From positions 832 through 64,831 of the forward strand of contig JAFQJB010000020.1 in NCBI GenBank assembly GCA_017397305.1: a DNA stretch of 64,000 nucleotides. Direction: 5' to 3'. The notes under the pieces are model-generated. The model was not told the DNA's origin. It saw nothing but the letters and a program-made list of their open reading frames with translations, and made no database searches. Origin of the DNA: Clostridia bacterium. GTDB taxonomy: Bacteria; Bacillota; Clostridia; Christensenellales; Borkfalkiaceae. Positions 25,732 to 60,728 of this stretch are shown here, piece after piece (position 1 is the stretch's first letter; every line of letters begins with the position of its first letter). A program made the translations under genes and the position numbers.

Positions 25732-25760
25732 AAACTCCCGAAAATTCGGGAGTTTTTTTC
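25732..25760. terminator. bidirectional terminator between convergent genes
   Basis: AAACTCCCG-aaaat-TCGGGAGTTTTTTT. Confidence 0.75.
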
Positions 25761-25775
25761 TTTTGTAATTTATGT

Positions 25776-26693
25776 TTACGCGTCTAGGCTATCTATGTAA
25801 AGGCATGCGTTGGTTGCGGCAATTCCGCCGTCAGCAACCGCCGTTACAACTTGCCTTACCGCTTTGGTACGGCAGTCCCCTGCCACGTAAAGTCCTTCTG
25901 TTTTGGTCATGCAGTTTTCGTCCGACACAATGTAACCCATTTTGTCAAGTTCAACAAACTCTTCAAATACCTTATTGTCGGGCACTTGACCAATTGCAAC
26001 GAATACTGCGGGGAGTTCGTGACGTTTAATCTCGCCGTCAGCATCTTTGTATTCGATTGCGGTAAGTTCGTCTTCACCAATAAAGTCCACTACACTAGTG
26101 TTGGGACGCCATTCGATGTTATCCTTGGATAGAAGCGCTTTAACGTGGGCTTTGTCGCCAAAGAATTTATCGAAAAGGGTATAGATATAAACCTTTTTGC
26201 AATATCCCGCAAGAAGCAACGAATATTGAAGTGCGGTATTCGCGTCGCCAATAACTGCAACTTCCCTATCTTTATAGAAAGGCCCGTCGCAAAGTGCGCA
26301 GTAATAAACGCCCTTACCCACTAAATCGTCCCTTTCGGACTTGGTGCGAAGGTGTTTATGCTTAACACCCGCAGCGATTATAACCGTCTTTGATTGATAG
26401 GTGTTATATTCGGTGTGAACGGTAAAAATCTTATCCTCACCCTTTTCAAGTTTAACAACCTTTTCAATCTCTAGGTCGGCGCCGAGGTCGGTTATTTGAT
26501 TATAAAGGTTATCGGCAAATTCTTCACCGCTGATAAGCCTTATAGACGGATAATTTTCAAGTCTTGGTGACATTGCGATTTGACCGCCAAGGCTTTCACT
26601 TTCTAATACTAAAACTTTTTTATTGTTTCTTAAAGCGTAGAGCGCGGAGGTCATTCCTGCCGCGCCTGCGCCTATAACGATAACGTCATACAT
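25776..26693 (-). CDS. thioredoxin-reductase-like flavoprotein lacking NADPH-binding motifs
   Basis: VIVIGAGAAG FAD motif and redox CALCDG. The positions of E. coli TrxB GGGNTA and HRRDGFR read GDANTA and TLFDKFF. Its ATG overlaps the nrdD stop (TAATG). Confidence 0.8.
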   Translation of the reverse strand: MYDVIVIGAGAAGMTSALYALRNNKKVLVLESESLGGQIAMSPRLENYPSIRLISGEEFADNLYNQITDLGADLEIEKVVKLEKGEDKIFTVHTEYNTYQSKTVIIAAGVKHKHLRTKSERDDLVGKGVYYCALCDGPFYKDREVAVIGDANTALQYSLLLAGYCKKVYIYTLFDKFFGDKAHVKALLSKDNIEWRPNTSVVDFIGEDELTAIEYKDADGEIKRHELPAVFVAIGQVPDNKVFEEFVELDKMGYIVSDENCMTKTEGLYVAGDCRTKAVRQVVTAVADGGIAATNACLYIDSLDA

Positions 26694-29062
26694 TAGTTTC
26701 TGCTCTCTATATATTTTCTAATTTCGCTTGCGTTGTCGTATGCATCGTAGCCGTTGCCGTTGGGAATGAGCAAGGTGGGTGCTTTCTTAACGCCGAGTTT
26801 TACGGTGAGTTCTTTGTTTTCTTCAGCATTTACGATAGAATAGGTAATGCCAGCCTTGTCAAGCATCATTTTGCTTGTCTTGCAGTTGGGGCAACCGTTT
26901 CTAGTGAAGAGTACGGGGCCGTCAAGTTCAACTTGAACTGCTTCTTGCTTTTTGCATTCGCATGCGTTAGCCTCTTTTGCTTCAAACTTAGAAGTTTCGA
27001 TGTTGTATTCCTTTCTATCTTCAAATTCCTTTCTCTTACCATCGTTCCAGTTTTGGATAGGACGATAGTAACCGGTTATACGGCTGTAAACTTCGGTCGT
27101 TCTTCCGCAAGTAGGACATTCGTAAACTTCACCAGCGATATAGCCGTGGTCAGCACATACAGAGTAGGTCGGTGACATGGTGTAGTAAGGAAGTTTGTAG
27201 TTTTGAGCAATCTTGCGAACAAGGTTAGCAGCAGACTTCCAATCGGGAAGTTTTTGACCTAAGAATGCGTGGAATACAGTACCCGAGGTGTAAAGGGTTT
27301 GAAGTTCGTCTTGAATATCGAGCGCAGAGAAGATATCGTCGGTATAACCTACGGGCAAGTGCGAGCTGTTGGTGTAATAAGGTGCATTGTCCGTATCAGA
27401 TGCGGTGATAATGTCGGGATATCTCTTCTTGTCGTGTTTAGCAAGTCTAAACGAAGTAGATTCTGCGGGAGTTGCTTCAAGGTTATAAAGGTCGCCGTAG
27501 AGTTCTTGATAGTCGGAAAGTTTGTTTCTCATAAAGTTCAAAACGTCTTTGGTGAAGTTTTGAGCTTCTTTTTGAGTCAAGTCTTTTCCAATCCATTTTG
27601 CGTTAAGACATGCTTCGTTCATACCAACGAGACCGATAGTTGAGAAGTGGTTATTGAACGTTCCCAAATATCTCTTGGTGTAGGGATAAAGTCCTGCATC
27701 CAAAAGTTTGGTAACGGTATCTCTCTTAACTTTGAGTGAACGAGCAGATATATCCATCATGTGCTTCAATCTATCGTAGAATTCGTCTTCAGTCTTTGAA
27801 AGGTAAGCAATTCTAGGCATATTGATGGTTACAACACCGATTGAACCGGTTGATTCACCACTACCAAAGAAGCCACCTGATTTTTTACGAAGTTCTCTTA
27901 AGTCGAGTCTTAAACGACAGCACATTGAACGAACGTCGCTCGGTTCCATATCGCTGTTGATATAGTTAGAGAAGTATGGTGTGCCGTATTTAGCGGTCAT
28001 TTCGAACAAGAGTTTGTTGTTTTCGGTTTCAGACCAGTCGAAGTCGGAAGTGATTGAATAGGTCGGGATAGGATATTGGAAACCTCTGCCGTTTGCGTCG
28101 CCTTCAATCATGATTTCGATAAACGCCTTGTTTACCATAGCCATTTCTTCTACGCAGTCTTTATATTTAAAGTCCATTTCCTTTCCGCCAACGATTGCGT
28201 TCATTTCAGCAAGGTCGTTAGGAACAACCCAGTCGAGCGTGATGTTGGTGAACGGAGATTGGGTACCCCATCTTGACGGAGTGTTTACGCCGTAAATGAA
28301 AGATTGGATGCATTGTTTAACTTCCTTGTAGGTAAGGTTATCAACCTTAACGAAGGGTGCAAGATAGGTATCGAACGAAGAGAATGCTTGTGCACCTGCC
28401 CATTCGTTTTGCATGATACCGAGGAAGTTAACCATTTGGTTGCAAAGTGTTGAAAGATGTCCTGCAGGGGATGAAGTGATTTTGCCGGGAACACCGCCAA
28501 GACCTTCTTTAATAAGTTGGCGGAGAGACCAACCTGCGCAGTAACCGGTGAGCATAGAAAGGTCGTGAATGTGGATATCTGCATTTCTATGTGCGTCGCC
28601 GATTTCATCATCGTATACTTCGCTAAGCCAATAGTTTGCGGTAACCGCACCGCTGTTAGATAGGATAAGTCCACCAACCGAATAGGTTACGGTAGAATTT
28701 TCCTTAACACGCCAGTCGGCAACTTTCAAATAATCGTCTACTACCTTCTTGTAGTCAACGATGGTGTCTTTAATGTTACGAACTTTTTCCCTTTGTTTAC
28801 GATAAAGGATATAACTTTTTGCAATATCCACGTAACCAGCTTGAATAAGAACAACTTCGGCACTATCTTGAATGTCTTCTACGTTTACAACGTTATCTTT
28901 GATTTTCTTTGCAAAATCAGCGGTAACACGTAGTGCAAGCATGTTCAAAATGTCTGCCGTGTAATCAATTTTTCTTGCGTTGAACGCCTTGGAAAGTGCG
29001 GTTGTAATCTTACTCATGTCAAATTCAACTAACTTTCCGTCTCTTTTTTTAACTTGAAACAT
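26693..29062 (-). CDS. nrdD: anaerobic (class III) ribonucleoside-triphosphate reductase with a C-terminal glutaredoxin/NrdH-like domain
   Basis: ATP-cone N-terminus, SMCCRLRL thiyl loop, C..H..CPTC Zn ribbon, glycyl-radical motif SRITGYY. An extra ~85 aa follows with CPNC (codons at 26882-26893). Confidence 0.9.
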   Translation of the reverse strand: MFQVKKRDGKLVEFDMSKITTALSKAFNARKIDYTADILNMLALRVTADFAKKIKDNVVNVEDIQDSAEVVLIQAGYVDIAKSYILYRKQREKVRNIKDTIVDYKKVVDDYLKVADWRVKENSTVTYSVGGLILSNSGAVTANYWLSEVYDDEIGDAHRNADIHIHDLSMLTGYCAGWSLRQLIKEGLGGVPGKITSSPAGHLSTLCNQMVNFLGIMQNEWAGAQAFSSFDTYLAPFVKVDNLTYKEVKQCIQSFIYGVNTPSRWGTQSPFTNITLDWVVPNDLAEMNAIVGGKEMDFKYKDCVEEMAMVNKAFIEIMIEGDANGRGFQYPIPTYSITSDFDWSETENNKLLFEMTAKYGTPYFSNYINSDMEPSDVRSMCCRLRLDLRELRKKSGGFFGSGESTGSIGVVTINMPRIAYLSKTEDEFYDRLKHMMDISARSLKVKRDTVTKLLDAGLYPYTKRYLGTFNNHFSTIGLVGMNEACLNAKWIGKDLTQKEAQNFTKDVLNFMRNKLSDYQELYGDLYNLEATPAESTSFRLAKHDKKRYPDIITASDTDNAPYYTNSSHLPVGYTDDIFSALDIQDELQTLYTSGTVFHAFLGQKLPDWKSAANLVRKIAQNYKLPYYTMSPTYSVCADHGYIAGEVYECPTCGRTTEVYSRITGYYRPIQNWNDGKRKEFEDRKEYNIETSKFEAKEANACECKKQEAVQVELDGPVLFTRNGCPNCKTSKMMLDKAGITYSIVNAEENKELTVKLGVKKAPTLLIPNGNGYDAYDNASEIRKYIESRN

Positions 29063-29106: not shown

Positions 29107-29136
29107 AATATACCATATCTATACTGCCCTTGTCAA
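29107..29136 (-). promoter_or_regulatory. promoter of nrdD
   Basis: Minus strand reads TTGACA-18 nt-TATATT. Confidence 0.5.
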
Positions 29137-29143
29137 TGGTTTA

Positions 29144-29159
29144 TAACAATATTTTGTAA
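29144..29159. promoter_or_regulatory. NrdR box 1
   Basis: taACAATATTTTGTaa compared with the remembered consensus acaCwAtATaTwGtgt. Confidence 0.6.
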
Positions 29160-29175
29160 ATTTTTTTTAGTAAAA

Positions 29176-29191
29176 CCACAATATCTTGTGT
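29176..29191. promoter_or_regulatory. NrdR box 2
   Basis: cCACAATATCTTGTGt. Its centre is 32 bp from box 1, the typical tandem spacing. Confidence 0.65.
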
Positions 29192-29433: not shown

Positions 29434-29736
29434 TTATCTTTTTGCACCGCATTGAGAACAAAACTTGTCGCCGTCCAAAAACTTGTGTCCACAACTCGTG
29501 CAAAACTTTGCTTCATTATTATTCGGCGTTGCCGTATCGCTAGCGGGTGCGTTTATCGCGTGCCTTTCGTTGTGGCGAAGTGGTGTTTGACAAGTCGGGC
29601 AGTAAACAAACCCGTCCGGATACCACGGGCGAAAGCCTAACTTTTTGTCGTCGTATTCGACAACGGTTTTACATTGGCTACAAACTTGTCTATAAGTTAA
29701 TCCGCTGTGCCAATTTGCTCTTTTAAAAACGCTCAT
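29434..29736 (-). CDS. double zinc-ribbon protein
   Basis: CSQC..CPTC and CTSCG..CSQCG. Start set at MSVFKR (RBS GGAGGG). Confidence 0.6.
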   Translation of the reverse strand: MSVFKRANWHSGLTYRQVCSQCKTVVEYDDKKLGFRPWYPDGFVYCPTCQTPLRHNERHAINAPASDTATPNNNEAKFCTSCGHKFLDGDKFCSQCGAKR

Positions 29737-29759
29737 ATTTCCCTCCGTATAAATTGCGT

Positions 29760-30764
29760 TTAATTTTCGGGCGCACCAACTTCCCACAAATTATGGTCGA
29801 TTGCAATGGTGCTACTATTGACGCGAATAGGAACAGAATGCCCAGCCAAAGTTACACTCTTTTCCCACTTGTCGTTTTTCTTGTGATATGCTTGCTTATA
29901 TACGGTAATTTCTGTTTGACCCATTGTTACGTCTTCAAGGTCTTTTAATCGCCACATATATAAAAACAATTCAGTATCGCTCGAATATTGAAACATAAAA
30001 TCAAGATTGTGCGTGTTTAACGTTTCGGTTGCAAAGTGATTTAAGTTACCACCCTGAATGTTTGTCGTGCTATACAACACAATGTTTTTTTCTATTGCAG
30101 AAACAACAGTATCACCTTTATTGGGGTCGTTTATACCATAACTATTTTTAACGTTTGACATAGCGGCTTCAATAAGTGCAAGAAAGTCTTGCCCAACCTC
30201 TATAACAACGTCGCCACCGGTGCCACCACCCGTGTCGCCAGAATCCCCTCCGTCACCACCGTGTTCAAAGTCCGCTTCTTCTGCGAATTCAAAAAGCAAC
30301 ACAGAATCAAGCCTTGGGTTAGAAACGTTTGAACCGCTGAAAGAAAAGGTTATCGAAAAAGTGATTGAATTGTTTGTGCTTTCTTTATAGCTTGGCACAG
30401 CCGTTCCCGTTTGTATTCCGTTTAAGGAGTATACTATGTTGGGATTGGAATAAGCATCATCCATGTATTTTACCGCGTTGAAAACCTTTGTTGTTTCGCT
30501 ATTATTAACTATTGTAATTGATATGGTTGCGGTTGAAGAAGAATATGGCAATACAACACTGCTAGAAAGTGCTGTTCCTACGTATGTGTTTACCGTTGAG
30601 TTTGCGTCCCCCGCCGCATTGCTGATGTAGATGTCGTTTATCCTTTCAGCATTTGCCGTTCCGCTAATTTGCAAGGAGGAATTCATTTGTGCATAGCCAA
30701 TCACTAAAAAAAGCGACATTAAAAGCGCAACTATATAAATCATTGTAAGCTTTGCTTTTGACAT
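29760..30764 (-). CDS. secreted or N-terminally anchored hypothetical protein with a Gly/Asp-rich linker
   Basis: N-terminal hydrophobic helix MIYIVALLMSLFLVIGYAQ, central HGGDGGDSGDTGGGTGGD. RBS AGGAGGAAG and promoter at 30788-30816. Confidence 0.6.
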   Translation of the reverse strand: MSKAKLTMIYIVALLMSLFLVIGYAQMNSSLQISGTANAERINDIYISNAAGDANSTVNTYVGTALSSSVVLPYSSSTATISITIVNNSETTKVFNAVKYMDDAYSNPNIVYSLNGIQTGTAVPSYKESTNNSITFSITFSFSGSNVSNPRLDSVLLFEFAEEADFEHGGDGGDSGDTGGGTGGDVVIEVGQDFLALIEAAMSNVKNSYGINDPNKGDTVVSAIEKNIVLYSTTNIQGGNLNHFATETLNTHNLDFMFQYSSDTELFLYMWRLKDLEDVTMGQTEITVYKQAYHKKNDKWEKSVTLAGHSVPIRVNSSTIAIDHNLWEVGAPEN

Positions 30765-33864: not shown

Positions 33865-34182
33865 TTATTCAATAAACAGTTTTATTTGTCCTTGCAAATT
33901 AAGTTTCTGAACCAAATCTTCCCATTTTACTTTTTGTCCATTAACTGTAAATCTATGCCATTGTCCATATGTATTAAAGAAGCTTTCGTATACACATAAT
34001 TCACAATTTCCATAGTTTCTTCTTTTATCGTCGCCCATAAAAACTATGCCTATTTCTTGTCCTTGGCTGTTTATTGCTGCGTAACCTTTTTTGCCTCTAA
34101 ATACTTTTTGGATATTATTAATAGTAAACTCTTCAAAATATTTTTTTCTTAATCCTTTGTTGCCTTTTACAGTGACATTCAT
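33865..34182 (-). CDS. hypothetical protein
   Basis: 105-aa ORF with RBS AAGGATG. No recognisable motif. Confidence 0.45.
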   Translation of the reverse strand: MNVTVKGNKGLRKKYFEEFTINNIQKVFRGKKGYAAINSQGQEIGIVFMGDDKRRNYGNCELCVYESFFNTYGQWHRFTVNGQKVKWEDLVQKLNLQGQIKLFIE

Positions 34183-34255
34183 TATTTTTCTTTCATCCTT
34201 TGTTTCAAAATTTTCATTTTTTAGTTGTAATTTTTTAATGTGTTTTTCGCTTCCC

Positions 34256-34543
34256 TTATATTTGTCGACAAAAACAAATATTGTGAGTATCCTTTTTAAC
34301 TTTATCTCTATATGTATATTTAAAAATACTGTCTGTACTTATTTTAAACCACAAAGCAAAAGCCTTTTCGCTTACAAAACATTGAGATGGTTTTAATTGA
34401 TAGTGCCTTAATATTTGACTTAACAAATATCCGCATTGATCTAGGCTTAATTCTTCTTCATTGAAAGTTGATAAAATACATTGGTTTGTTTTAACGCCTT
34501 CTACAAGAGATATAATTATATCCATCACCATGTTTTGTTCCAT
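34256..34543 (-). CDS. hypothetical protein
   Basis: Start set at MEQNMVMD (RBS AAGGGGA). 95 aa. Confidence 0.4.
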   Translation of the reverse strand: MEQNMVMDIIISLVEGVKTNQCILSTFNEEELSLDQCGYLLSQILRHYQLKPSQCFVSEKAFALWFKISTDSIFKYTYRDKVKKDTHNICFCRQI

Positions 34544-34559
34544 TTTGCTATCCCCTTTT

Positions 34560-34787
34560 TTATTTATTCCAGTAGCAACCGCCACCTTTTATTTTTACAA
34601 TAGGTTTTCCATATTCTATCAAATAGTCTACGTTTCTTCCAATAGTCCTTCTATCGCAGGGAATATTCATAGAGTTTAAAACTTTCGTCATACTTGTTAT
34701 AGTTATATGCTTTTCTTTTGAAGAGCCTTTTTCTAACATATCAAGTACATATAAAATTATAGTTTTCTTTGCAATATTCTTTTTCAT
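34560..34787 (-). CDS. small winged-helix (HTH_11/DeoR-N-like) DNA-binding protein
   Basis: ILYVLDMLEKG...ITSMTKVLNSMNIPCDRRTIGRNVDYLIEYGKPI..GGGCY. Confidence 0.5.
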   Translation of the reverse strand: MKKNIAKKTIILYVLDMLEKGSSKEKHITITSMTKVLNSMNIPCDRRTIGRNVDYLIEYGKPIVKIKGGGCYWNK

Positions 34788-34951
34788 AAAAACACCCTCT
34801 ATATATATTATAACAAAAAAATATAGACAAAACTATGACAAGTGTAAAAGTTTTTAAATTTTACTTATTTTTTTTGATTTATAAGGGTTGTAAGTTTTTT
34901 GTCATAGTTCATTTGTTATAATTAAATAGAAAAGAAATCAAGGAGAAATAT

Positions 34952-35608
34952 ATGTCAACTTTTTTTACAATTAAAAAGAAATGTGCCGTTTGTGGAACAG
35001 AAAACGAGATTAAAATCTGGGGGAGCACACATGCGTTTGGATATTGCGATTTAGATTTCCGCCCTGCTGAACAAATGCGATCTTTGTTATATTTGCAGGC
35101 AGAAGAATGCGTAAACTGTGGCTTTGTTGCTACAAATATCGCAAATGACAAATTTGCTAATGTTTATAAGAAAATTGTCAATAGTGATGAGTATAAAAAT
35201 TGTAATAGAATCAAATTTGAGAATGATGTTGCAGAAAAATTTTATAAAATTTATTTATTAAATACTAAACTCAATGATGAAACGGCATCATTTTTAGCGT
35301 TAAGAAATGCTGCTTGGATATGTGATGATGCAGGAGATGAAAAAAATGCGATAAAATGCAGAAAAGAGGCGTTAAAATTTTTAGACGTGTTAATATCAAT
35401 AAAAGATAACAACCTTGAAAAATATATCTTAATAAAAATGGATTTTTTAAGACGTTGTAGAATGTTTAAAGAAGTAATTGACTGTTATAAAGAATTTAAA
35501 TTCACAAATGAGTCGCACTATAAAGTTTATAATTATCAAAAATTTCTTGCACAAATCAGGAATGATAAAATTTCAAATTATGGTGAAGTAATAAATTTTT
35601 TTAATTAA
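34952..35608 (+). CDS. zinc-ribbon plus helical-repeat protein (DUF2225-like)
   Basis: CAVCG...DLDFRP...CVNCGF followed by a helical, TPR-like C-terminal part. RBS AAGGAGA. Confidence 0.5.
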   Translation: MSTFFTIKKKCAVCGTENEIKIWGSTHAFGYCDLDFRPAEQMRSLLYLQAEECVNCGFVATNIANDKFANVYKKIVNSDEYKNCNRIKFENDVAEKFYKIYLLNTKLNDETASFLALRNAAWICDDAGDEKNAIKCRKEALKFLDVLISIKDNNLEKYILIKMDFLRRCRMFKEVIDCYKEFKFTNESHYKVYNYQKFLAQIRNDKISNYGEVINFFN

Positions 35609-35635
35609 AAATTAACTGATGTCTTTTAGTATTTA

Positions 35636-35686
35636 AAACAAAAAGTGAACAAACTCATCTTCCTTTCCAGGTTCGAATTTGTTCAC
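35636..35686 (-). terminator. hairpin plus U-run downstream of tRNA-Ser
   Basis: GTGAACAAA-N24-TTTGTTCAC, followed on the minus strand by TTTTTGTTT. Confidence 0.5.
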
Positions 35687-35689
35687 ATT

Positions 35690-35777
35690 TGGCGGAGAGG
35701 AGAGGATTTGAACCTCCGGTACGTTTCCGTACACACGCTTTCCAAGCGTGCACATTAGACCACTCTGACACCTCTCC
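35690..35777 (-). tRNA. tRNA-Ser (anticodon GGA), CCA encoded
   Basis: Manual fold: acceptor GGAGAGG/CCTCTCC, anticodon arm CACGC-TTGGAAA-GCGTG, long variable arm GTACG-GAAA-CGTAC, T arm GGAGG-TTCAAAT-CCTCT. One mismatch in the D stem. Confidence 0.9.
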
Positions 35778-35961
35778 GTGCCTAAAGTCCGCTAATTATT
35801 CTAATATATTTTCAAAATAAAAGCAAGTCAAATGTGCTTACATTTTAAAATTTAGGGCAAATTTTTTTGTCTTTTGCTTATTCTATTACAAGTACCGTCT
35901 TTACCCCTCTATTGACAAGGAGTTGCAATAATGGTATAATACGCGGGATAGGAGAAAATAT

Positions 35962-36819
35962 ATGATTGTACGAATGTTTAACCTTTGGTATTTTTTCTGG
36001 TTATTATTTGCCAGTGGAACCATTGTGGGTTTATATTTTTTACTGAGGAACAAATCACAAAAGACAAAAAAGTGGACGCTTTTTTCCATACTTTTATTCG
36101 CGCTTATTCTTCACTTTGTAAAACTGTTCTTCCCGCCGTATACCACCAATCAAGAAATTGCGCTTAGGGACAGCTGGTTTATCAATATCTGCGGTGCGAA
36201 CATTGCGCTCTTCCCCTTTTTGTTTTTATTTAAGAACAAATACGTCAAAGATTATATCTTTTACATGGGCATAATCGGTGGCGGGCTTGCCCTTTTATAC
36301 CCCACCGAAGCGCTTAACAAGACCATTGAAAACCCGCTGATTTTTGACACCATAAGATTCTATTTACACCACACCATTCTATTTGCAATTCCGCTTCTTA
36401 TGGTAATGCTTAAAGTTCACCAAATAAGTTATAAACGCATTTTATCTTGCCCCGTCGGGCTTCTTATCGTAATGCTGTTTATTATGCTAAATCAAGTATT
36501 GCAAAGTGAACTTGGCTTTATCCCTTTAAGAAAGGGCGACATCTTCAACATTGGCTACAAAAACACTTCGTTTATATGGGGACCGGGCGACGATTCGCTT
36601 GCGCAAATCTTCGTTATTTTCTGTCCTAAATTCTTTAGGGTAATTCCGTTTGGAGAGTTTGCTGGGCAAGAAAAGTTTTGGCCGTGGTTTTGGCTTATCA
36701 TTCCCGTGTTCATCTACCTTATCCCCTTTGCATTTATGCTGTCGATGATATTCGACCACAAAAAGTTTAGGGGCGACGTTGTAGCAATCTATAAAAAAAT
36801 CTTCAAAAAGACAAACTAA
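35962..36819 (+). CDS. integral membrane protein (YwaF/TIGR02206-like guess)
   Basis: 285 aa, about 7-8 TM segments. RBS AGGAGA. Confidence 0.6.
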   Translation: MIVRMFNLWYFFWLLFASGTIVGLYFLLRNKSQKTKKWTLFSILLFALILHFVKLFFPPYTTNQEIALRDSWFINICGANIALFPFLFLFKNKYVKDYIFYMGIIGGGLALLYPTEALNKTIENPLIFDTIRFYLHHTILFAIPLLMVMLKVHQISYKRILSCPVGLLIVMLFIMLNQVLQSELGFIPLRKGDIFNIGYKNTSFIWGPGDDSLAQIFVIFCPKFFRVIPFGEFAGQEKFWPWFWLIIPVFIYLIPFAFMLSMIFDHKKFRGDVVAIYKKIFKKTN

Positions 36820-50514: not shown

Positions 50515-52125
50515 TTAAACGTTGGGTTGCTTTGTATAGTTCGGCAACAATTGAGGTGACAACTTAGTTGCGTTAATACCAGCATCCTTTAATTCCTTAT
50601 CGAATGCTTTAACGTGGTCTAAGGTGAGTTCTTTAACCTCAACGTCTTTATAAATCTTACCTACGCTCTTACCTGCGTTTCTACCGAATACGATAATGTC
50701 GAGGAGAGAGTTACCCATAAGTCTATTTCTGCCGTGGATTCCCCCTACTGCCTCACCTGCAACGAAGAGGTTGGGAACGGTAGTGGTCATGCCGTCAGCC
50801 GAGATATCAAGTCCACCGTTTTGATAGTGGAGTGTGGGATAGATAAGAATGGGGTCTTTTCTAATATCGATGCCGTATTTACCGAACATGCGGAGCATTG
50901 CGGGAATACGTTTTTCGATAGTGCCTTCACCGTGAATAATATCAATCATCGGGGTGTCAAGCCATACGCCTTCACCATCGGTGGTCTTGATACCGTTGTT
51001 GCGTTTTTTGCATTCTCTAATGATAGAAGATGCGGTCACGTCACGGGTTTCAAGCGAGTAAACGAATGCTTCGCCGTCTTTATTTACGAGTTGTGCGCCG
51101 AGTGAACGAACTTTTTCGGTAACGAGTGCACCGAAGATTTGAGTGGGTTCAGCAACGCCAGTGGGGTGATATTGAAGGGTGTCAGCATAAAGGAGTTTTG
51201 CACCTGCTCTATAACCTAATACCAAGCCGTCAGCCGTTGCGCCGTAGTGGTTAGAGGTTGGGAAACCTTGATAGTGAAGTCTACCTGCACCACCAGTTGC
51301 AATGATAACGGTTTTTGCCTTTGCAACGTAAATGTCTTTGGTTTCCATATTGAGAAGAACTGCACCAGCCGCCTTGCCTTCTGTATCCTTAATAATTTCG
51401 ATAGCAGCGGTAAAGTCAACAACGGGGATTTGGCGGTTCAACACTTCGTCACGAAGGGTTCTCATAATTTCCGCACCCGAATAGTCCTTACAAGCGTGCA
51501 TACGTTTTCTACTAGTACCGCCACCGTGGGTGGTAATCATAGTGCCGTCTGCTTCCTTATCGAACATAACGCCGAGTTCGTTGAGCCATTTGATAGCATC
51601 GGGAGCATCGTTAACGAGCTTATATAAAAGTTCGTGCTTTGCAGCAAAGTGACCGCCACCGAAAGCGTCTAGATAGTGAATAGCGGGGCTATCGTTGGGT
51701 TTATCAGCCGCTTGAATTCCGCCCTCTGCCATCATGGTGTTTGCATCACCGATACGGAGTTTGGTTACCATCATAACGTTTGCGCCAGCATTGTGCGCTT
51801 CGATAGCAGCAGAAGAACCTGCACCACCGCCACCGATAACCAAAACGTCTACGTCGTAGTCGGGTTTAGAGAGGTCGATATCTAAATCGAGCACTCTTGA
51901 TTTACCTTGCAAAAGGTCAGCAAGTTCGTGCAATACTTTTCCGCCCTTGTTGGGACCAACTTTCAATTCTTCATAAGCAGAAGTTATGTAGTCGGGGTGG
52001 TTTTCTTGCAAAACCGTTTGCTTTTCGTCCGCAGTCATTCTTGCGAACAAGTTTTGAAGTCTTTGTTCTCTGGTCGCTTCGACCTTCTTCATTGAATCTA
52101 ATTGTTCTTGTGTATACTTATACAT
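50515..52125 (-). CDS. soluble fumarate reductase / succinate dehydrogenase-family flavoprotein (FrdA/TfrA-like, non-covalent FAD type)
   Basis: VLVIGGGGAGSSAA; ANTMMAEGG (Asn where FrdA has the FAD-linking His); LQYHPTG; TEKVRSLGAQLVNKDGE; HYQNGG; AGEAVGGIHGRNRLMGNSL. Confidence 0.8.
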   Translation of the reverse strand: MYKYTQEQLDSMKKVEATREQRLQNLFARMTADEKQTVLQENHPDYITSAYEELKVGPNKGGKVLHELADLLQGKSRVLDLDIDLSKPDYDVDVLVIGGGGAGSSAAIEAHNAGANVMMVTKLRIGDANTMMAEGGIQAADKPNDSPAIHYLDAFGGGHFAAKHELLYKLVNDAPDAIKWLNELGVMFDKEADGTMITTHGGGTSRKRMHACKDYSGAEIMRTLRDEVLNRQIPVVDFTAAIEIIKDTEGKAAGAVLLNMETKDIYVAKAKTVIIATGGAGRLHYQGFPTSNHYGATADGLVLGYRAGAKLLYADTLQYHPTGVAEPTQIFGALVTEKVRSLGAQLVNKDGEAFVYSLETRDVTASSIIRECKKRNNGIKTTDGEGVWLDTPMIDIIHGEGTIEKRIPAMLRMFGKYGIDIRKDPILIYPTLHYQNGGLDISADGMTTTVPNLFVAGEAVGGIHGRNRLMGNSLLDIIVFGRNAGKSVGKIYKDVEVKELTLDHVKAFDKELKDAGINATKLSPQLLPNYTKQPNV

Positions 52126-52136
52126 AACTCTTCCCC

Positions 52137-52811
52137 CTATTTCTCGATTTCTCTATTGTTATAGAGTTCTTTGAGTTCTTCGATAGGCTTATTCATAAGC
52201 GTTTCGATAAGTTCTACGTACTTGCCGTCTTCGATTTCTTTTACCCTATCGATAAGATGTTGAGTTTCAGGAGCCATATACTTGCCGTAAAGTCTTCTTG
52301 CAAGTTCAGCAACTTGGGGATGAGAAATACCAGCGGGACATCTTGAAGAGCAAACGCCACACATTACGCAGTCAAAAGATTCTTCCGCGCAGTTAGCATA
52401 GTCACCGCGTTGTGCGTATGCAATGTATTGCATAACGTTAAGTCCTTGCGTACAAGCCTTAGTACAAGCATTGCAACCTACGCACGCATAGATTTCGGGG
52501 TAAAGTTGCATCATGATTTGTTCGGTCGGCTTAATCTTTTCAATATCGTAAACTGATTTTACGAGGGGGAAGAAAGGAAGCGTTGCAACGTACATATCGT
52601 TTTCAACCTTTTGTTGACAAGCGAGGCACGCGTGCAATTCCCTATCGCCTTTGATACGGTAAATAGTTGAACATGCACCGCAGAAACCGTTTCTGCATCC
52701 GCAACCGCGAACGAGTTGGTATCCGGCATATTCCATTGCCTTCATAATAGTTAAACTTTCGGGCACTTGATATTTCTTACCGAAAAAATAAACGTTAACT
52801 AAATTTTCCAT
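52137..52811 (-). CDS. FrdB/SdhB-like iron-sulfur subunit
   Basis: N-terminal 2Fe-2S CGCRNGFCGACS..C, then CVGCNACTKAC and CVMCGVCSSRCP. Confidence 0.75.
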   Translation of the reverse strand: MENLVNVYFFGKKYQVPESLTIMKAMEYAGYQLVRGCGCRNGFCGACSTIYRIKGDRELHACLACQQKVENDMYVATLPFFPLVKSVYDIEKIKPTEQIMMQLYPEIYACVGCNACTKACTQGLNVMQYIAYAQRGDYANCAEESFDCVMCGVCSSRCPAGISHPQVAELARRLYGKYMAPETQHLIDRVKEIEDGKYVELIETLMNKPIEELKELYNNREIEK

Positions 52812-52825
52812 TTGTTTTCTCCTTA

Positions 52826-53653
52826 TTAATACTCGTTCGGCAATTCGTCGAGTTCGTCGAAACGGAATACCGGACCGTCTTTACATACATATTTTGAACC
52901 TACGTTACATCTTCCGCATTTACCAACACCGCACTTCATACGAAGCTCTAACGTCGTGTAAACTTGGGTCTTTTCAAAGCCTAGTGACCTAAGCCCTTCC
53001 AAAGTAAACTTAATCATAATAGGCGGACCGCAAAGAACTGCAATCTTATTGGTATCAAAGCCAAGTTCTTTAACGTAGTTAGGAACAAAACCAACGTGTC
53101 CGTCCCAACCTTCTTGTTCGCGGTCGATAGTTAAGTGAACGTTTACACCACTATCGGTCGCCCATTCGTTTATAATTTCTTGATAGTCAAGTAGGTCGTC
53201 TTTACTTCTTGAACCGTAAACGATATCGATTTTGCCGTATCTATCACGATAATGTCTGCAATAGTTAATTACAGAGCGGAGCGGTGCTAGACCAACGCCA
53301 CCTGCAACGAACAAAAGGTCTTTACCTGCAAACACGTCGTCAACGGGGAACGGATTGCCGTAAGGTCCGCGAACGGTAACGTTTTGACCGGGTTCAGCCG
53401 CGTGAAGCCAAGTGGTTACGCAACCGCATTTCTTAATAGAAAATTCCATATACTCGGTATTTGTGGGAGAGGACGTTATTGAAAACATCGCTTCGCCTAT
53501 ACCAGGGATAGAAAGCATTGCGCATTGACCGGGGCGGTGTTCAAAAAGTTTCTTACCTTCGGGTGAAACAACCCTAAAGGTTTTAATATCGGGGGTGTCT
53601 TGTCTAATCTCGGTTATAACGCCGAGTTTTGGGATTAAAGTTTCATTAATCAT
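52826..53653 (-). CDS. FAD/NAD(P)H-binding oxidoreductase with C-terminal 2Fe-2S (FlxA / AsrB / HydG-like)
   Basis: RPGQCAML, FVAGGVGLAP, and C-terminal CGVGKCGRCNVG. Confidence 0.75.
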   Translation of the reverse strand: MINETLIPKLGVITEIRQDTPDIKTFRVVSPEGKKLFEHRPGQCAMLSIPGIGEAMFSITSSPTNTEYMEFSIKKCGCVTTWLHAAEPGQNVTVRGPYGNPFPVDDVFAGKDLLFVAGGVGLAPLRSVINYCRHYRDRYGKIDIVYGSRSKDDLLDYQEIINEWATDSGVNVHLTIDREQEGWDGHVGFVPNYVKELGFDTNKIAVLCGPPIMIKFTLEGLRSLGFEKTQVYTTLELRMKCGVGKCGRCNVGSKYVCKDGPVFRFDELDELPNEY

Positions 53654-54671
53654 TTTCCTTACCTCCGAGAGTTTTCATAACCTTAACGATATTCATTGAT
53701 ATCGGGCACTTTGTAAGACAACGTCCGCAACCTACACAGCTGAACATTCCGTCGTTATTGTCGGGATAGTACACGAGTTTGTGCATAAATCTTTGACGGA
53801 AACGTTCCTTTTGCGATGCTCTTGAGTTGCCGTGAGCCATCAACGTGAAATCGCTATACATACAAGAGTCCCAACATCTAAAACGTTGAACACCCTCGTT
53901 TGTCTTAAAATCTTTAATGTCGTAGCATTGACAAGTCGGGCAAACGAAAGTACAAGTTCCACAACCTAAGCAGTGTGAAGAAAGCTCGTCCCACGCGGGT
54001 GAATCAAAGTATTCTTTGGTCTTGCCTGCGCCAAACTTTTCAGTAGTAACGTTACTTAGGGGAAGTTTTTCCATGATAGCGGAAATTTGTTTCTTTTGTT
54101 CTTCAACTGCCTTTCCGTCACAATCTTCAGTTATAGATGAGATTGCACTTAAAAGCTTTTCGCCCTTTTCGGTGTTTGCAAGAAGATATAAGTCAGTTTC
54201 GGTCTTCCACGCGGTTATATCGCCAGCGGGGTTTGCCGCATCGATACCGAAGGTCTTACAAAAACAAGTTTCGCTAGGTCTTCCGCAAGCGAGGGAAACG
54301 ATAACGCCCTTTTCCCTTCTAGATGCGTAATAACTATCAACGGGTTCGGAGAGGAACACTCTATCAAGAATTTCAAAACTCTTTACGTCGCACGCACGAA
54401 CGCCGAATACAACGAAGTCTTCTTTTTCTTGTCTATTGTCGATAATTTCGATATTCTTTCCTTCGGTCTTGAACTCCATAAGAGTTTCCATTTGAGGAAA
54501 GAAGAAATCTTTTGCACTTCTAACGGTGTTGAGCGCGTCGCTCATCTTAACACCTTCTTGCCAAAGTTTAAATGACGCACCGCCTTTGCCGTCAACGGGA
54601 ATATATAGTTTTGCGTTTTCCGCAATCAATGCAAACGCTTTATCTAAATTTGAAAGAGAAATTTTACGCAT
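53646..54671 (-). CDS. 4Fe-4S protein (FlxB / AsrA / HydB-like)
   Basis: CLGCGTCTFVCPTCQCYD and CVGCGRCLTKCP. Confidence 0.7.
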   Translation of the reverse strand: MRKISLSNLDKAFALIAENAKLYIPVDGKGGASFKLWQEGVKMSDALNTVRSAKDFFFPQMETLMEFKTEGKNIEIIDNRQEKEDFVVFGVRACDVKSFEILDRVFLSEPVDSYYASRREKGVIVSLACGRPSETCFCKTFGIDAANPAGDITAWKTETDLYLLANTEKGEKLLSAISSITEDCDGKAVEEQKKQISAIMEKLPLSNVTTEKFGAGKTKEYFDSPAWDELSSHCLGCGTCTFVCPTCQCYDIKDFKTNEGVQRFRCWDSCMYSDFTLMAHGNSRASQKERFRQRFMHKLVYYPDNNDGMFSCVGCGRCLTKCPISMNIVKVMKTLGGKEND

Positions 54672-55660
54672 TATTTATCCCCCTTATTAACTGCTTCGCT
54701 CGGTTCCAAGTCTTCCTTGGTGTAGTTAACGAGCGGTGCTCTGTTGCCAACTTCTTCACCAGCTTGGTAATCGCCGTAGAATCCGTTGATATCTTTAATG
54801 AATTTTCTATTGAGCAAGTGGAGCGGAATTTGTTGTGGGCACACCCTTGAACATTCACCGCAGTCGGTACAACGTCCTGCAACGTGGAATGCACGGATAA
54901 TGTGGAACATTTGCTCTTCAAAGCTGTTTGCAGCAGCTTTATTTTGAACGCCTGAGTTGGGGTTGTCGAACACGCACTTTTCACAAGTACATGCGGGGCA
55001 AACGTCACGGCAAGCGTTACAACGGATACAACGTGATAATTCGTTTTGCCAGAAAGCAAATCTTTCATCCGCCGTCATCTTTTCAAGCTCGTCAACTTGG
55101 TCGAAGCGATTTGAAGAAATAACTTCGCCGTCTTCACCGATAAGTTCGTCGTAAGCAACGTGCTTTTTGCTCTTACAGTTACGGCAACGTTCTGCCAAAA
55201 CTTCGGCTTTAGCGATTTCTTTAACGCCGTCGTAAAGGGTTTCAACCTTTAAGGTATCGGTAGTTGCGTCAACCGACACTATTCCGTCACCAAAAGCGTT
55301 CTTAATTTTTTTGATATCAACCATGCCGTCACAAGCAATGCCAACGACGTAAACTTTTTCACGGTCAAAGCGGTGCTCGGTTAAGAGTTGGTTAAAACTA
55401 TAAGTGTCGCAAGGCTTTAAGAACACAAGTGTTTTGCCTTCGCCCTTTTTAGTTTCTTTAATTAGGTATTTTGAGAAGTTTGCGCCCGAAAAATCGTCGA
55501 ACACAAAATCTTTCTTCATACTTTCAATATCGGTGAAAACCGCGGGTGTTTGGTCGTAAGAAAATTCACCTTTCTTTAGACCGAGAACTTTTGAAACAGT
55601 GCCGTTACTAAGAAGTTCTTCTGCTTTTGCGATAAGCACTTCACGAGTTATTTTTTGCAT
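54671..55660 (-). CDS. 4Fe-4S protein (FlxC-like)
   Basis: CIRCNACRDVCPACTC and CTDCGECSRVCP. Its stop overlaps the next start (TAATG). Confidence 0.6.
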   Translation of the reverse strand: MQKITREVLIAKAEELLSNGTVSKVLGLKKGEFSYDQTPAVFTDIESMKKDFVFDDFSGANFSKYLIKETKKGEGKTLVFLKPCDTYSFNQLLTEHRFDREKVYVVGIACDGMVDIKKIKNAFGDGIVSVDATTDTLKVETLYDGVKEIAKAEVLAERCRNCKSKKHVAYDELIGEDGEVISSNRFDQVDELEKMTADERFAFWQNELSRCIRCNACRDVCPACTCEKCVFDNPNSGVQNKAAANSFEEQMFHIIRAFHVAGRCTDCGECSRVCPQQIPLHLLNRKFIKDINGFYGDYQAGEEVGNRAPLVNYTKEDLEPSEAVNKGDK

Positions 55661-56082
55661 CTTAAGTCCTCCAATCTCTTATTTTCACCAAGAGCGGTTA
55701 CCGTTTTAACAAAGTCGTTCATGGTCGCTGCGAACTTTGCACCTTCAGCAGCCGATACCCACTCTACTCTAGTACGTTCTTTTTCGATACCCAAATAGTC
55801 GAGCATTGAAAAAAGTAGTGCCATTCTACGTCTTGTGTAATAGTTACCCGAAGTGTAGTGGCAGTCCCCTGGGTGACAACCGCAAAGGATAACCCCGTCC
55901 GCACCGCGTTGGAATGCGCGGAGAATGAACATCGGGTTAACACGGCAAGAACAAGGAACACGGATAACCTTTACTTCAGCGGGATACGCCAAACGGTTGC
56001 TACCTGCAAGGTCAGCACCCGCATACGAACACCAGTTACAACAAAAAGCTACGATTTTGGGTTTATATTCGTTTACTTGCAT
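55648..56082 (-). CDS. MvhD/FlxD-like protein (methyl-viologen-reducing hydrogenase delta subunit family)
   Basis: IVAFCCNWCSYAGADLAG...VIRVPCSCRV...CGCHPGDCHY. Confidence 0.85.
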   Translation of the reverse strand: MQVNEYKPKIVAFCCNWCSYAGADLAGSNRLAYPAEVKVIRVPCSCRVNPMFILRAFQRGADGVILCGCHPGDCHYTSGNYYTRRRMALLFSMLDYLGIEKERTRVEWVSAAEGAKFAATMNDFVKTVTALGENKRLEDLRCKK

Positions 56083-58067: not shown

Positions 58068-58081
58068 TTGTACTCTCCTTT

Positions 58082-58471
58082 TTACTTAGTGTATTTCCTA
58101 AACGCACTTACGATTGCTTGTTGGGGCAAATCTTCGTCCAAAAGTTCAGGAATATCGTCTGGCTTTAAGTGATTGTTGCCTTGCTGTCTAACAACCATAA
58201 GGCGAACTGCTTCAACGAGTTTAGCAGGTTCAACTCCCCTCGGGCATCTGTCGATACAAGCAAAGCAAGAAAGACAACGATAGATTGATTTTGATTTTAG
58301 TAGCGGTTCGATATCACCCGTTTCAACCATATACACGAATTGATGGGGATGATATTCCATTTCGTCATACGCAGGGCAAGTTCCAGAACATTTTCCGCAT
58401 TTCATGCACTTTCTAGGGTTAACCTTGCTTATGCGAACGATTTCATCACATACGTTTTTGGAATTTTCCAT
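58082..58471 (-). CDS. hdrC: heterodisulfide reductase subunit C-like
   Basis: CMKCGKCSGTCP and CLSCFACIDRCP. Confidence 0.8.
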   Translation of the reverse strand: MENSKNVCDEIVRISKVNPRKCMKCGKCSGTCPAYDEMEYHPHQFVYMVETGDIEPLLKSKSIYRCLSCFACIDRCPRGVEPAKLVEAVRLMVVRQQGNNHLKPDDIPELLDEDLPQQAIVSAFRKYTK

Positions 58472-58475
58472 TGTT

Positions 58476-59252
58476 CTACTCCTTTATCCCAAACGCTTCT
58501 GCAAGCAATTCGGTGATGTATACTACCGGCAAATCACTGCCGTTCTTTTCTAAGTTGTACTTACAAAGCGGACAAGCGGTTACGATAACTTCTGCGCCGT
58601 TGAGTTTTGCGTTGTCAGAAACCCTCTTACTCTTTGCCTTTGCAAGTTCCTTGCTCTCTAAGGTGATATATCCACCGCAACATTCGTTACGGAAAGCGTA
58701 ACTTACGGGCTCACCGCCGATTGCACGGATTAAATCTTCCATAATGGTGGGGTTTTCCACGTCGTCCATAGCCATAACTTTACCAGGACGGAGAAGAAGA
58801 CAACCATAATAGGGAGCAATCTTTTTGCCTGCGAGAGAGTTAACAACCTTTTCCTTAACCTTTTCGTAACCGATTTTGTCACGAAGAAGTTCTAAGTAAT
58901 GGATAACTTCGGTCTCGCCATTATACTTATCTGGTGCAATGTATTGGTTTACACGGAAATTAAAGCCGTCATCCGTTTGCATTGCATTGTTGGTTTGTTT
59001 TAACACGTTGTGACAAGCCGAACATACCGAAACTAGCGGTTGACCTTTGTCGTTTGCGTGTTTTAACGCGCGCACTGAAGAAAGTTTTGTAGCAATCTCG
59101 TCGTTAGCGGTTGTAAACACACCGCCACAGCATTGCCAATTATCAATTTCTTCAAGCGTAACGCCAAGCACTTCCGCACACTTTCTAGCATACTCGTCAA
59201 GCACTTTAGCTTTAGTCTTTAACGTACAGCCGGGAAAATAACTTACTTTCAT
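58476..59252 (-). CDS. hdrB: heterodisulfide reductase subunit B-like (two CCG domains)
   Basis: YFPGCTL, QCCGG, YYGCLL, ECCGG and CPLC. Confidence 0.85.
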   Translation of the reverse strand: MKVSYFPGCTLKTKAKVLDEYARKCAEVLGVTLEEIDNWQCCGGVFTTANDEIATKLSSVRALKHANDKGQPLVSVCSACHNVLKQTNNAMQTDDGFNFRVNQYIAPDKYNGETEVIHYLELLRDKIGYEKVKEKVVNSLAGKKIAPYYGCLLLRPGKVMAMDDVENPTIMEDLIRAIGGEPVSYAFRNECCGGYITLESKELAKAKSKRVSDNAKLNGAEVIVTACPLCKYNLEKNGSDLPVVYITELLAEAFGIKE

Positions 59253-59268
59253 TTATCTGTCGCTCCTT

Positions 59269-60645: not shown

Positions 60646-60728
60646 AATCAATCTCCTTTTTAGGTTTTCGCCAGTAAAATCAAGGCTAAAAAACCGTATA
60701 AATCGTCATTATAAATTCTTTTTGCTTA

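Follow-up and report, generated by a model that had tools for sequence, protein, structure and literature searches.

Background

Ribonucleotide reductases (RNRs) of class III and NrdD2 type, the NrdD3 chain of M. barkeri, fusions of glutaredoxin (Grx) to RNR subunits and thioredoxin reductases (TrxRs) independent of NAD(P)H are all already known. Here we describe a locus of Clostridia bacterium (Borkfalkiaceae; assembly GCA_017397305.1, contig JAFQJB010000020.1) that is an uncharacterised variant of these systems. It consists of two genes, nrdD-grx and trxB-like, encoding an anaerobic RNR with a redoxin domain fused to its C-terminus and a TrxR paralogue with a remodelled NADPH pocket. By the window we mean the whole analysed stretch of 64,000 nucleotides (nt) around these genes (positions 832 to 64,831 of the contig).

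In the NrdD2 systems of N. bacilliformis and T. maritima, supplied by thioredoxin (Trx), TrxR and NADPH (Wei et al. 2014, as related in PMC4493059 and PMC9669993), reduction is disulfide-based, and a redoxin and a flavoprotein TrxR re-reduce the enzyme. As far as these two accounts go, the cysteine of barrel strand beta-A, the adjacent cysteine pair of the finger loop and the active-site glutamate are common to those enzymes and to the one described here. In our locus, unlike in the NrdD2 systems, the redoxin is fused to NrdD, and the TrxR is private, encoded in the operon and devoid of a recognisable NADPH site. The finger loop reads MCCR, with its methionine kept, whereas SCCR is given for the NrdD2 systems. 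As for M. barkeri, an NrdH-like redoxin and a ferredoxin:disulfide reductase feed its NrdD, according to the citations in PMC9176816 (Table 1) and PMC11846895 (ref. 9). The concept of a pyridine-nucleotide-independent chain, leading from a low-potential donor over a disulfide reductase and a Grx-like redoxin to a class III RNR, would be common to both systems. The M. barkeri redoxin, however, is cited as a separate protein, and its NrdD as lacking both the glutamate and the methionine (QCCR). The reductase of the 2015 work of Wei et al. on M. barkeri is reportedly no flavoprotein TrxR, being an iron-sulfur enzyme similar to FTR.

A redoxin fused to an RNR subunit is also found in the class I Grx::NrdB of Facklamia ignava, where its role as reductant has been demonstrated (PMC6187632). 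That fusion differs from ours in RNR class and subunit, in the N-terminal position of the redoxin, in its CPYC-type, glutathione-linked Grx and in having no dedicated reductase gene. The NrdH/TrxR system of class Ib RNRs resembles our locus in that the RNR genes are accompanied by one for a small Grx-like redoxin, which shows no evident use of glutathione and receives its electrons from TrxR; in our case, the redoxin is fused, lacks the NrdH signatures and serves a class III enzyme.

In the FFTR (PDB 6gna-d), FFTR/DTR (5j60) and DvTRi (5nii) proteins, the TrxR scaffold with its FAD and CxxC sites has been kept while both NADPH motifs were lost, as in our TrxB-like protein. The nearest mechanistic parallel is DvTRi, which has an acidic residue in its pyrophosphate loop (GEGxxAxN), lacks HRR, is experimentally inert with NADH and NADPH and has an unknown donor (PMC5627308). 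Unlike these enzymes, the TrxB-like protein has a separate origin, judging from bit scores; it has the motif GD[AG]NTA/TLFDKFF, compared with TQ/NGK in TRi, lacks the Trp tail of DTR and would be dedicated to one substrate domain instead of free thioredoxins.

The locus had been singled out in an original prediction, made from the letters of the sequence, which proposed a self-contained reductant chain for NrdD and held the fused arrangement to be uncharacterised. The latter agrees with the literature searched, where we found no characterisation and a single listing, in a 2018 RefSeq survey, of one Grx:NrdD fusion that was never studied (Lachnospiraceae bacterium TWA4, subclass NrdDd; PMC6187632). 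The same literature gave no account of the fusion as widespread (in hundreds of clusters and in phages), of a fused NrdD typically paired with a dedicated TrxR paralogue, or of a large gut-associated TrxR lineage in which specifically the NADPH pocket has been remodelled, giving a motif type that is new. Overall, the observations behind the prediction were confirmed, and its interpretation was supported in part.

Linkage and conservation of the two genes

Conservation and gene order support the view that nrdD-grx and trxB-like form a conserved, often translationally coupled unit. In the window, both open reading frames (ORFs), including the 789-residue NrdD, and the TAATG junction at 26691-26695 are as originally predicted, with one base common to the TAA of the former gene and the ATG of the latter (agaaacTAATGtatgac). 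Each protein has more than 120 homologue clusters, found in uncultured Clostridia and Christensenellaceae. All diagnostic motifs, replacements of the GDANTA/TLFDKFF type included, are kept in 118-120 of 120 homologue clusters, and SMCCR, NLEATPAE and CPNC of NrdD are essentially invariant over 120 homologues and about 165 loci.

Linkage was examined from both sides. On the TrxB side, one genome per GTDB species was scanned with the TrxB-like protein as query, and 80 loci were returned. NrdD is in reach, and the TrxB-like match at least 39% identical, in 45 loci; in every one of them, the gene immediately upstream of the TrxB-like gene encodes an NrdD-redoxin that has SMCCR, NLEATPAE and a tail of CPNC type. 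The 1-nt overlap of TAATG type is present in 19 of these (20 if the window's own contig, L002, is counted). The remaining loci comprise 34 stand-alone TrxBs of at most 46% identity and one close relative whose contig ends 80 nt upstream (L021). On the NrdD side, metagenome contigs were scanned with a profile of the glycyl-radical region plus tail, giving 80 diverse fusions at 42-71% identity. In 73 loci, the contig extends 1 kb or more beyond nrdD; the TrxB-like gene follows immediately in 59 of these, and truncated copies occur in 2 more; the gap between the genes is 19 nt or less in 35 of 61 loci. The pairing thus recurs in well over 100 independent loci. Together with the conservation of the replacement motifs (118-120 of 120 clusters), this places it well above chance. 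When 46 syntenic loci were compared, conservation of the neighbourhood was limited to three families, NrdD, the TrxB-like protein and NrdG, the last within 6 kb in 20 of the 46. An assembly or frameshift artefact was considered as the source of the fusion and rejected, since the fusion recurs in more than 200 independent assemblies.

Several further occurrences of the module were noted. The fused NrdD-redoxin, with SMCCR, NLEATPAE and CP[NKR]C, is encoded in 41 IMG/VR contigs (L165-L205), many of the viral proteins being shorter (about 672 aa), and the flanks of three of these loci (L177, L180 and L192) match phage-specific PHROGs (exonuclease, polymerase, helicase). The phages seem to bring the tethered redoxin and to rely on a host reductase. 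A near-identical module is present in metagenome-assembled genomes labelled Bacteroides, Bacteroidaceae, Muribaculaceae and Gammaproteobacteria (L029, L036, L037, L041 and L042), the NrdD core being 79-86% identical where measurable; these copies may reflect horizontal transfer or mis-binned contigs. Finally, two loci of Bacilli/Erysipelotrichaceae (L043:891-2915 and L049:131-2134) contain a second ORF of about 670 aa upstream of nrdG-nrdD-trxB. Its ATP-cone region alone matches NrdD (28-32% identity), and it may represent another RNR class in the same operon.

Active site of NrdD

The first gene encodes a class III catalytic subunit. The NRDD catalytic domain spans residues 121-686 (PF13597, E 1.3e-190), the curated NrdD model NF006126 matches end to end over residues 2-688 (1136 bits, cut-off 548) and TIGR02487 scores 526 bits against a cut-off of 326. 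A glycyl-radical motif is present, and an NrdG2 activase is encoded in the window. The motifs named in the original prediction, namely SMCCR (residues 379-383), RITGYY (661-666) and CPNC (724-727, nt 26882-26893), were found as stated.

The SMCCR finger loop aligns with TMGCR of P. copri, ASCCR of T. maritima and PMGCR of E. coli, and is kept in 119 of 120 homologues. Glu529, within NLEATPAE, aligns with E495 of T. maritima NrdD (TmNrdD; NIEQVPAE) and is conserved in 120 of 120 homologues; the position is occupied by Tyr in E. coli NrdD and by Leu in P. copri NrdD. In the scheme of Wei et al., as presented in PMC4493059, E495 is the proposed proton donor of the redoxin-dependent enzyme. By sequence, the protein thus has both marks of NrdD2, a third cysteine adjoining the thiyl cysteine and a glutamate equivalent to E495. 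It shares with NrdD1 only the methionine, NrdD1 having a single-cysteine MGCR loop and no glutamate, and it differs from NrdD3 (double cysteine, QCCR/A, neither glutamate nor methionine) in that Met380 and Glu529 are both present. The original prediction had taken the two adjacent cysteines as a mark of redoxin-dependent as opposed to formate-dependent enzymes. The cysteine pair and Glu529 do agree with NrdD2, but this claim was too categorical, as MCCR keeps the methionine (PMC9669993). MCCR is the majority motif among NrdDs with a double-cysteine finger loop (83%) and has the components for either reductant, redoxin or formate (Burnim et al. 2022, PMC9669993).

The tethered redoxin domain

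Beyond the end of the NF006126 match at residue 688, NrdD continues for about 101 aa, made up of a linker of about 24 aa and a domain of about 77 aa. The protein extends 123 aa past RITGYY, not about 85 aa as first proposed, and the thioredoxin fold assigned to this extension was borne out by Pfam, AlphaFold2 (AF2) and Foldseek, which agree on a folded redoxin on a flexible tether. The glutaredoxin model PF00462 matches residues 717-766 with 27.9 bits (cut-off 22.9). An AF2 model of residues 700-789, built with 41 homologues, predicts a confident fold (block pLDDT 85-91) with the active site C724-P-N-C727 at the N-terminus of helix 1, and disorder for residues 700-710. CPNC is kept in 119 of 120 homologues. 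Foldseek matched the model to Trx, NrdH and Grx structures at probability 1.0, with no single family outstanding; NrdH of C. glutamicum is among the matches (27% identity, TM 0.67). When 46 orthologous tails were aligned, a conserved core LFT...CPNCK...APTL(cis-Pro)...S.I..Y was apparent, whereas the linker in front of it differs in both length and sequence.

NrdH proteins bear the signatures CVQC and WSGFRP. The tail has CPNC and no WSGFRP, and it scores far below the cut-offs of the NrdH model TIGR02194 (27.3 bits vs 85.75) and of the NrdH and YruB NCBIfam models in general (about 27 bits each vs cut-offs near 86-89). The properties of a Trx-fold redoxin are all found, that is, the fold, a CxxC at the N-terminus of helix 1 and a conserved cis-Pro loop (APTL). 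Based on the model and the profile scores, the tail is best described as a flexibly tethered redoxin of Trx fold, minimal in size and divergent, and as neither a bona fide NrdH nor a classical Grx.

The linker contains Cys701-Glu-Cys703 (nt 26954-26962, minus strand). A Cys-x-Cys, sometimes CxCC, is present in 17 of 35 NrdDs with a GD[AG]-type partner (for partner types see below), in one of 19 with an HRR-type partner and in none of 5 with a QxL-type partner. A function as shuttle dithiol or as inter-subunit metal site is conceivable. An essential shuttle dithiol was rejected; the element is missing from many orthologues, some with GD[AG]-type partners included, and hence has no general role in the mechanism.

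The TrxB-like protein and its remodelled pocket

The second gene encodes a flavoprotein with two Rossmann domains (Pyr_redox_2, E 5.8e-42), whose closest solved relatives are ordinary TrxRs (PDB 4zn0, E 4.5e-52). In public records, it goes by the name 'FAD-dependent oxidoreductase' only. The FAD and CxxC sites of a canonical TrxR are in place, and the GKG Trx-binding element before CALC is intact (GKGVYYCALCDG). It departs from canonical NADPH-TrxRs in having GDANTA and TLFDKFF instead of GGGxxA and HRRxxxR, and its score with the TrxR equivalog model TIGR01292 is 286.5 bits, below the cut-off of 343.45. In an ungapped alignment to 4zn0, GDANTA stands opposite GGGNSA, and YTLFDKF opposite VHRRDHL; E. 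coli TrxB reads GGGNTA (153) and HRRDGFR (176) in the K-12 genome. The motif replacements described in the original prediction, with CALC and the FAD-binding GxGxxG retained, are confirmed by these comparisons. Misalignment of the cysteine loop and of the lost motifs had been named as a possible source of error; the 4zn0 alignment and the NrdD alignments support the placement of both elements as first given.

The partners of the fused NrdDs are of several types. In the metagenome set, 36 are of the GD[AG]N/T-L-F-D-K-F-F type, 19 have canonical GGG/HRR, 5 combine GGG with Q-x-L at the site of HRR and 2 are other. A column-by-column comparison was made between 73 partners of GD[AG] type and 17 of HRR type. 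The changes specific to the class (E. coli numbering) are Gly to Asp at 154, Gly to Ala at 155, His to Thr at 176, Arg to Leu at 177, Arg to Phe at 178 and Arg to Phe at 182; otherwise, four conservative hydrophobic swaps and a near-threshold Ile/Ala difference at position 73 were seen. Remodelling is thus restricted to the loop for the pyrophosphate and the cage for the 2'-phosphate. In a rough neighbour-joining tree of the GTDB set, the GD[AG] proteins form one derived clade, NrdD-linked forms that retain GGG branch earlier, and a few stand-alone HRRD enzymes are interspersed. At 50% identity, the whole family forms one cluster; the next representative stands at 56%. The tree and the partner types indicate that the TrxB-like enzyme arose inside an NrdD-linked lineage whose other members keep GGG/HRR. 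One protein nested inside the GD[AG] clade (L026:6001-6906) reads GNGNTA/TRKDRFSG, with basic residues partly regained at the former 2'-phosphate site. The possibility that the QNL-type NrdD-linked partners are true FFTRs was rejected, as they score 247 bits to an NADPH-dependent TrxR (NTR) and 122 bits to FFTR.

The original prediction had compared the protein to relatives of FFTR/DTR type. Loss of both NADPH signatures holds; descent from FFTR/DTR does not, given 160-180 bits to NTRs and 85-117 bits to the known NAD(P)H-independent groups. Individually, these are 107-117 bits to clostridial FFTR (6gna, 6gnc), 116 bits to the FFTR/DTR 5j60 and 85 bits to DvTRi (5nii). The protein agrees with clostridial FFTRs in the absence of NAD(P)H motifs, by which that group is defined (PMC10880999), but does not group with the characterised members, as judged by comparison of bit scores and not by a joint tree. 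When two relatives from the same clade, likewise without the motifs (P0371 and P0260), were compared with the PDB, they too were closer to NTRs, and FFTR was never among the top five matches. The C-terminal Trp/aromatic tail that defines cyanobacterial FFTR/DTR (PMC8154056) is lacking: the protein ends at residue 305, and its alignment spans residues 9-309 of the 320-residue 5j60 chain with no extension. DvTRi has TQ/NGK for HRRD and a GEGxxAxN loop, as against TLFD and GDANTALQ here. By similarity, the TrxB-like protein would therefore belong to none of these groups. A literature search for the cofactor of PDB 7jyp returned nothing relevant.

Proposed electron relay and alternative explanations

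We propose that the two-gene operon encodes a class III RNR together with its own disulfide-reducing system. Cys175, Glu529 and Cys381, the last located beside the thiyl Cys382, would allow nucleotide reduction at the cost of an active-site disulfide, with Glu529 as proton donor, as proposed for NrdD2 enzymes. The redoxin domain, on a flexible linker of 20-60 residues, would swing in and re-reduce the Cys175-Cys381 disulfide, much as free thioredoxin or NrdH does elsewhere, and would itself be re-reduced by the TrxB-like flavoenzyme. Electrons would thus pass from the reductase FAD over C132/C135 and the tail cysteines C724/C727 to the active-site disulfide and on to the nucleotide. For this private relay as a whole, we estimate a probability of about 0.68. 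The 19 canonical GGG/HRR partners make the chain from TrxR over redoxin to NrdD the common denominator of these loci.

As for the input of the chain, the existence of canonical GGG/HRR partners suggests that NADPH was probably ancestral. In the TrxB-like enzyme, the pyridine-nucleotide pocket has been dismantled (GG to DA; His/Arg/Arg/Arg to Thr/Leu/Phe/Phe), so its flavin is most likely reduced by a donor other than NADPH; the strong conservation of the replacement motif points to a new donor rather than to decay. Independence from NAD(P)H seems probable, though with a little less confidence than the relay itself. Ferredoxin or flavodoxin is the leading guess for the donor, by analogy with FFTR, and must be regarded as tentative. 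Equally tentative is the wider view that the GD[AG]NTA/TLFDKFF enzymes represent a third or fourth independent pyridine-nucleotide-independent flavin TrxR, distinct in origin from clostridial FFTR, cyanobacterial FFTR and TRi. In this view, a TrxR already dedicated to RNR would have had its NADPH pocket filled, and dNTP synthesis of abundant gut anaerobes of Christensenellales type would be wired to the pool of reduced ferredoxin/flavodoxin via the NrdD-tethered redoxin.

Several observations weigh against the proposed relay or its donor. A fused NrdD is found with no TrxB-like gene within 4 kb in 12 of the 73 cellular loci and in all 41 viral contigs, so that the fusion does not strictly require the TrxR. 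No conserved ferredoxin, flavodoxin or free thioredoxin gene was found near the module in the 46 syntenic loci. The dedicated chain of the original prediction agrees with the conserved, coupled unit, while its low-potential donor was conjecture, no such gene being conserved near the module, and the chain is not self-contained, the first electron donor being missing from the locus. Kinship with known ferredoxin-dependent TrxRs appears limited to general family membership. The tree on which the origin of the clade is based carries no support values, and the L026 variant suggests that the remodelled site tolerates change. Finally, Met380, which is linked to formate chemistry, is retained in the MCCR loop, making use of formate possible.

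Three other explanations were considered. The chain might operate as proposed with the TrxB-like enzyme still taking electrons from a pyridine nucleotide, most plausibly NADH, through the remodelled pocket. The protein is nested among NADPH-type TrxRs, with NTRs as its closest solved relatives, GGG/HRR persists in 19 other NrdD-linked partners, a linked gene for an alternative donor was not found, and HRR-less TrxRs which prefer NADH are known, namely T. maritima TR and DvTR3 (PMC5627308). NADH-using TrxRs keep GGG, however (PMC5627308), whereas the change from GGG to GDA adds a carboxylate and removes a close-contact glycine. Moreover, the end of strand beta-2 offers two phenylalanines and no acidic residue of NADH type in place of the histidine, and DvTRi, with its similar GEG loop, accepts neither nucleotide (PMC5627308). 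We consider such a use of NADH unlikely. A different possibility is that formate drives NrdD turnover via Met380 and Cys175, as in E. coli, and that redoxin and reductase serve in maintenance or redox gating; one such task could be to undo thiol oxidation, such as an adventitious Cys175-Cys381 disulfide, that results from exposure to oxygen. This would suit the retained methionine, shared with 83% of double-cysteine NrdDs, for which either reductant is deemed usable (PMC9669993), the phage and cellular copies without a private TrxR, and the frequent dedication of Trx systems of Clostridia to stress (PMC10880999). Against it, the glutamate that reduction without formate is proposed to require is invariant, class I offers the precedent of a fused Grx serving as the reductant in catalysis (PMC6187632), and fusion, translational coupling and an apparent NrdR operator (see below) argue for a stoichiometric partner linked to catalysis. 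Formate-driven turnover thus appears somewhat less likely still than the use of NADH.

It might also be supposed that the TrxB-like protein is a decaying or unrelated flavoprotein beside nrdD, such as a relic, an oxidase or a peroxide-defence enzyme, considering that it misses the curated TrxR cut-off and that public records give it such an unspecific name. But its FAD motifs, CxxC and GKG element are intact, the replacement motifs are strongly conserved, the differences from canonical partners are limited to six pocket residues and the adjacency is repeated in about 100 loci, with stop/start overlaps. A decaying gene, or chance adjacency, is effectively excluded by the conservation data, and an unrelated role is very improbable.

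Organisation of the locus and its surroundings

The features of the locus are listed in Table 1. The gene for the activase, nrdG, is located 2 kb from the nrdD-grx operon, on the opposite strand. The nrdD promoter is immediately preceded by the palindromes cacaagatattgtg and acaaaatattgt, spaced about 32 bp centre to centre; we take them to be a putative NrdR operator, having matched them by eye to the NrdR-box consensus. Such a tandem arrangement would agree with regulation of the ATP-cone type, as in RNR operons. The gene upstream of the nrd operon has its own terminator (29419-29391). Judging from these signals, nrdD-grx and trxB-like probably form a two-gene operon under predicted NrdR control. 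No B12 or other riboswitch was found upstream of nrdD by an Rfam scan, which gave one tRNA elsewhere as its only match.

Table 1. Coordinates of genes, domains, motifs and predicted signals of the nrdD-grx/trxB-like locus (window positions).
Feature	Position	Strand	Basis
nrdG, NrdD-activating radical-SAM enzyme, 230 aa	23140..23832	+	TIGR02495 NrdG2, 208 bits vs cut-off 131
Predicted bidirectional intrinsic-terminator hairpin, 10-bp stem, common to the operon and a convergent EamA-family gene	25732..25755	.	Sequence
trxB-like, low-Mr thioredoxin-reductase paralogue with remodelled NADPH pocket, 305 aa	25776..26693	-	ORF, Pyr_redox_2, TIGR01292, PDB TrxRs
T172-L-F-D-K-F-F178, replacing 2'-phosphate-binding HRRDxxR	26160..26180	-	Alignment
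G149-D-A-N-T-A154, replacing pyrophosphate-binding GGGxxA	26232..26249	-	Alignment
Redox-active C132-A-L-C135	26289..26300	-	Alignment; CA[IL]C in 119/120 homologues
FAD-binding GxGxxG, G8-A-G-A-A-G13	26655..26672	-	Sequence, alignment
TAATG stop/start overlap, nrdD-grx / trxB-like	26691..26695	-	Sequence
nrdD-grx, class III RNR catalytic subunit with fused C-terminal redoxin domain, 789 aa	26693..29062	-	ORF, Pfam, NF006126
Redoxin domain, ~residues 713-789, beta-alpha-beta-alpha-beta-beta-alpha	26696..26926	-	AF2, Foldseek, PF00462
Variable linker, ~residues 689-712	26927..26998	-	pLDDT below 50 for residues 700-710
Glycyl-radical motif RITGYY, residues 661-666, Gly664	27065..27082	-	Sequence, alignment
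NLEATPAE, residues 527-534, with Glu529	27461..27484	-	Alignment to 4coi
Finger (thiyl) loop S379-M-C-C-R383, double-cysteine MCCR type	27914..27928	-	Alignments
Cys175 (GYCAGW), conserved barrel beta-A cysteine	28538..28540	-	Alignment to 4coi; equivalent to TmNrdD C125, EcNrdD C175
ATP-cone, NrdD residues 3-92	28787..29056	-	PF03477, E 3.4e-21
Predicted sigma-70-type promoter, TTGACA, 18 nt spacer, TG-TATATT	29107..29136	-	11/12 consensus matches, top in region; consensus match only
Two NrdR-box-like palindromes, cacaagatattgtg (29190-29177) and acaaaatattgt (29157-29146)	29146..29190	-	Read from sequence

Directly upstream of the nrd operon (29434-30764, minus strand) are the genes for a 334-aa protein without Pfam match but with a Gly/Asp-rich stretch (GGDGGDSGDTGGGTGGD) and, overlapping the former, for a 117-aa double zinc-ribbon protein. 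A stretch of low GC content (0.29, compared with about 0.41 elsewhere) extends over positions 34001-36000 of the window and contains its only Rfam match, a tRNA at 35693-35777 (minus strand); it might be an integration site or an island boundary. About 25 kb from the nrdD-grx operon, an Hdr/Flx-like low-potential electron module was observed (50515-60651, minus strand). It encodes an HdrA-like flavo-FeS protein (664 aa), MvhD/FlpD (144 aa), an HdrC-like 2x[4Fe-4S] protein (129 aa), an HdrB-like CCG-domain protein (258 aa), several Fer4 proteins, an NAD-binding/DHODB-FeS protein, an FAD_binding_2 protein (536 aa) and a class II fumarase. The ferredoxin-like matches inside the window belong to this Hdr/Mvh-like cluster, and no particular donor is linked to the nrdD module.

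Implications

The module bears on the question which reductant serves anaerobic RNRs of the MCCR class, the majority type (Burnim et al.). An NrdD fused to a redoxin and translationally coupled to a private reductase provides strong genomic evidence for redoxin use by MCCR enzymes, and with the genes for every partner in one place, the module would lend itself to experiments. The series of partners, from canonical NADPH enzymes over HRR-less forms to those fully remodelled at six residues, offers a map of donor switching in TrxRs, and the module could reveal a new ferredoxin- or flavodoxin-linked TrxR type. The phage-borne fused reductase bears on nucleotide supply during infection. The carriers are widespread gut and rumen anaerobes (Christensenellaceae and relatives), and if an independent ferredoxin/flavodoxin-linked invention proved true, it would follow that redoxins supply the MCCR enzymes, the majority class of anaerobic RNRs, in vivo.

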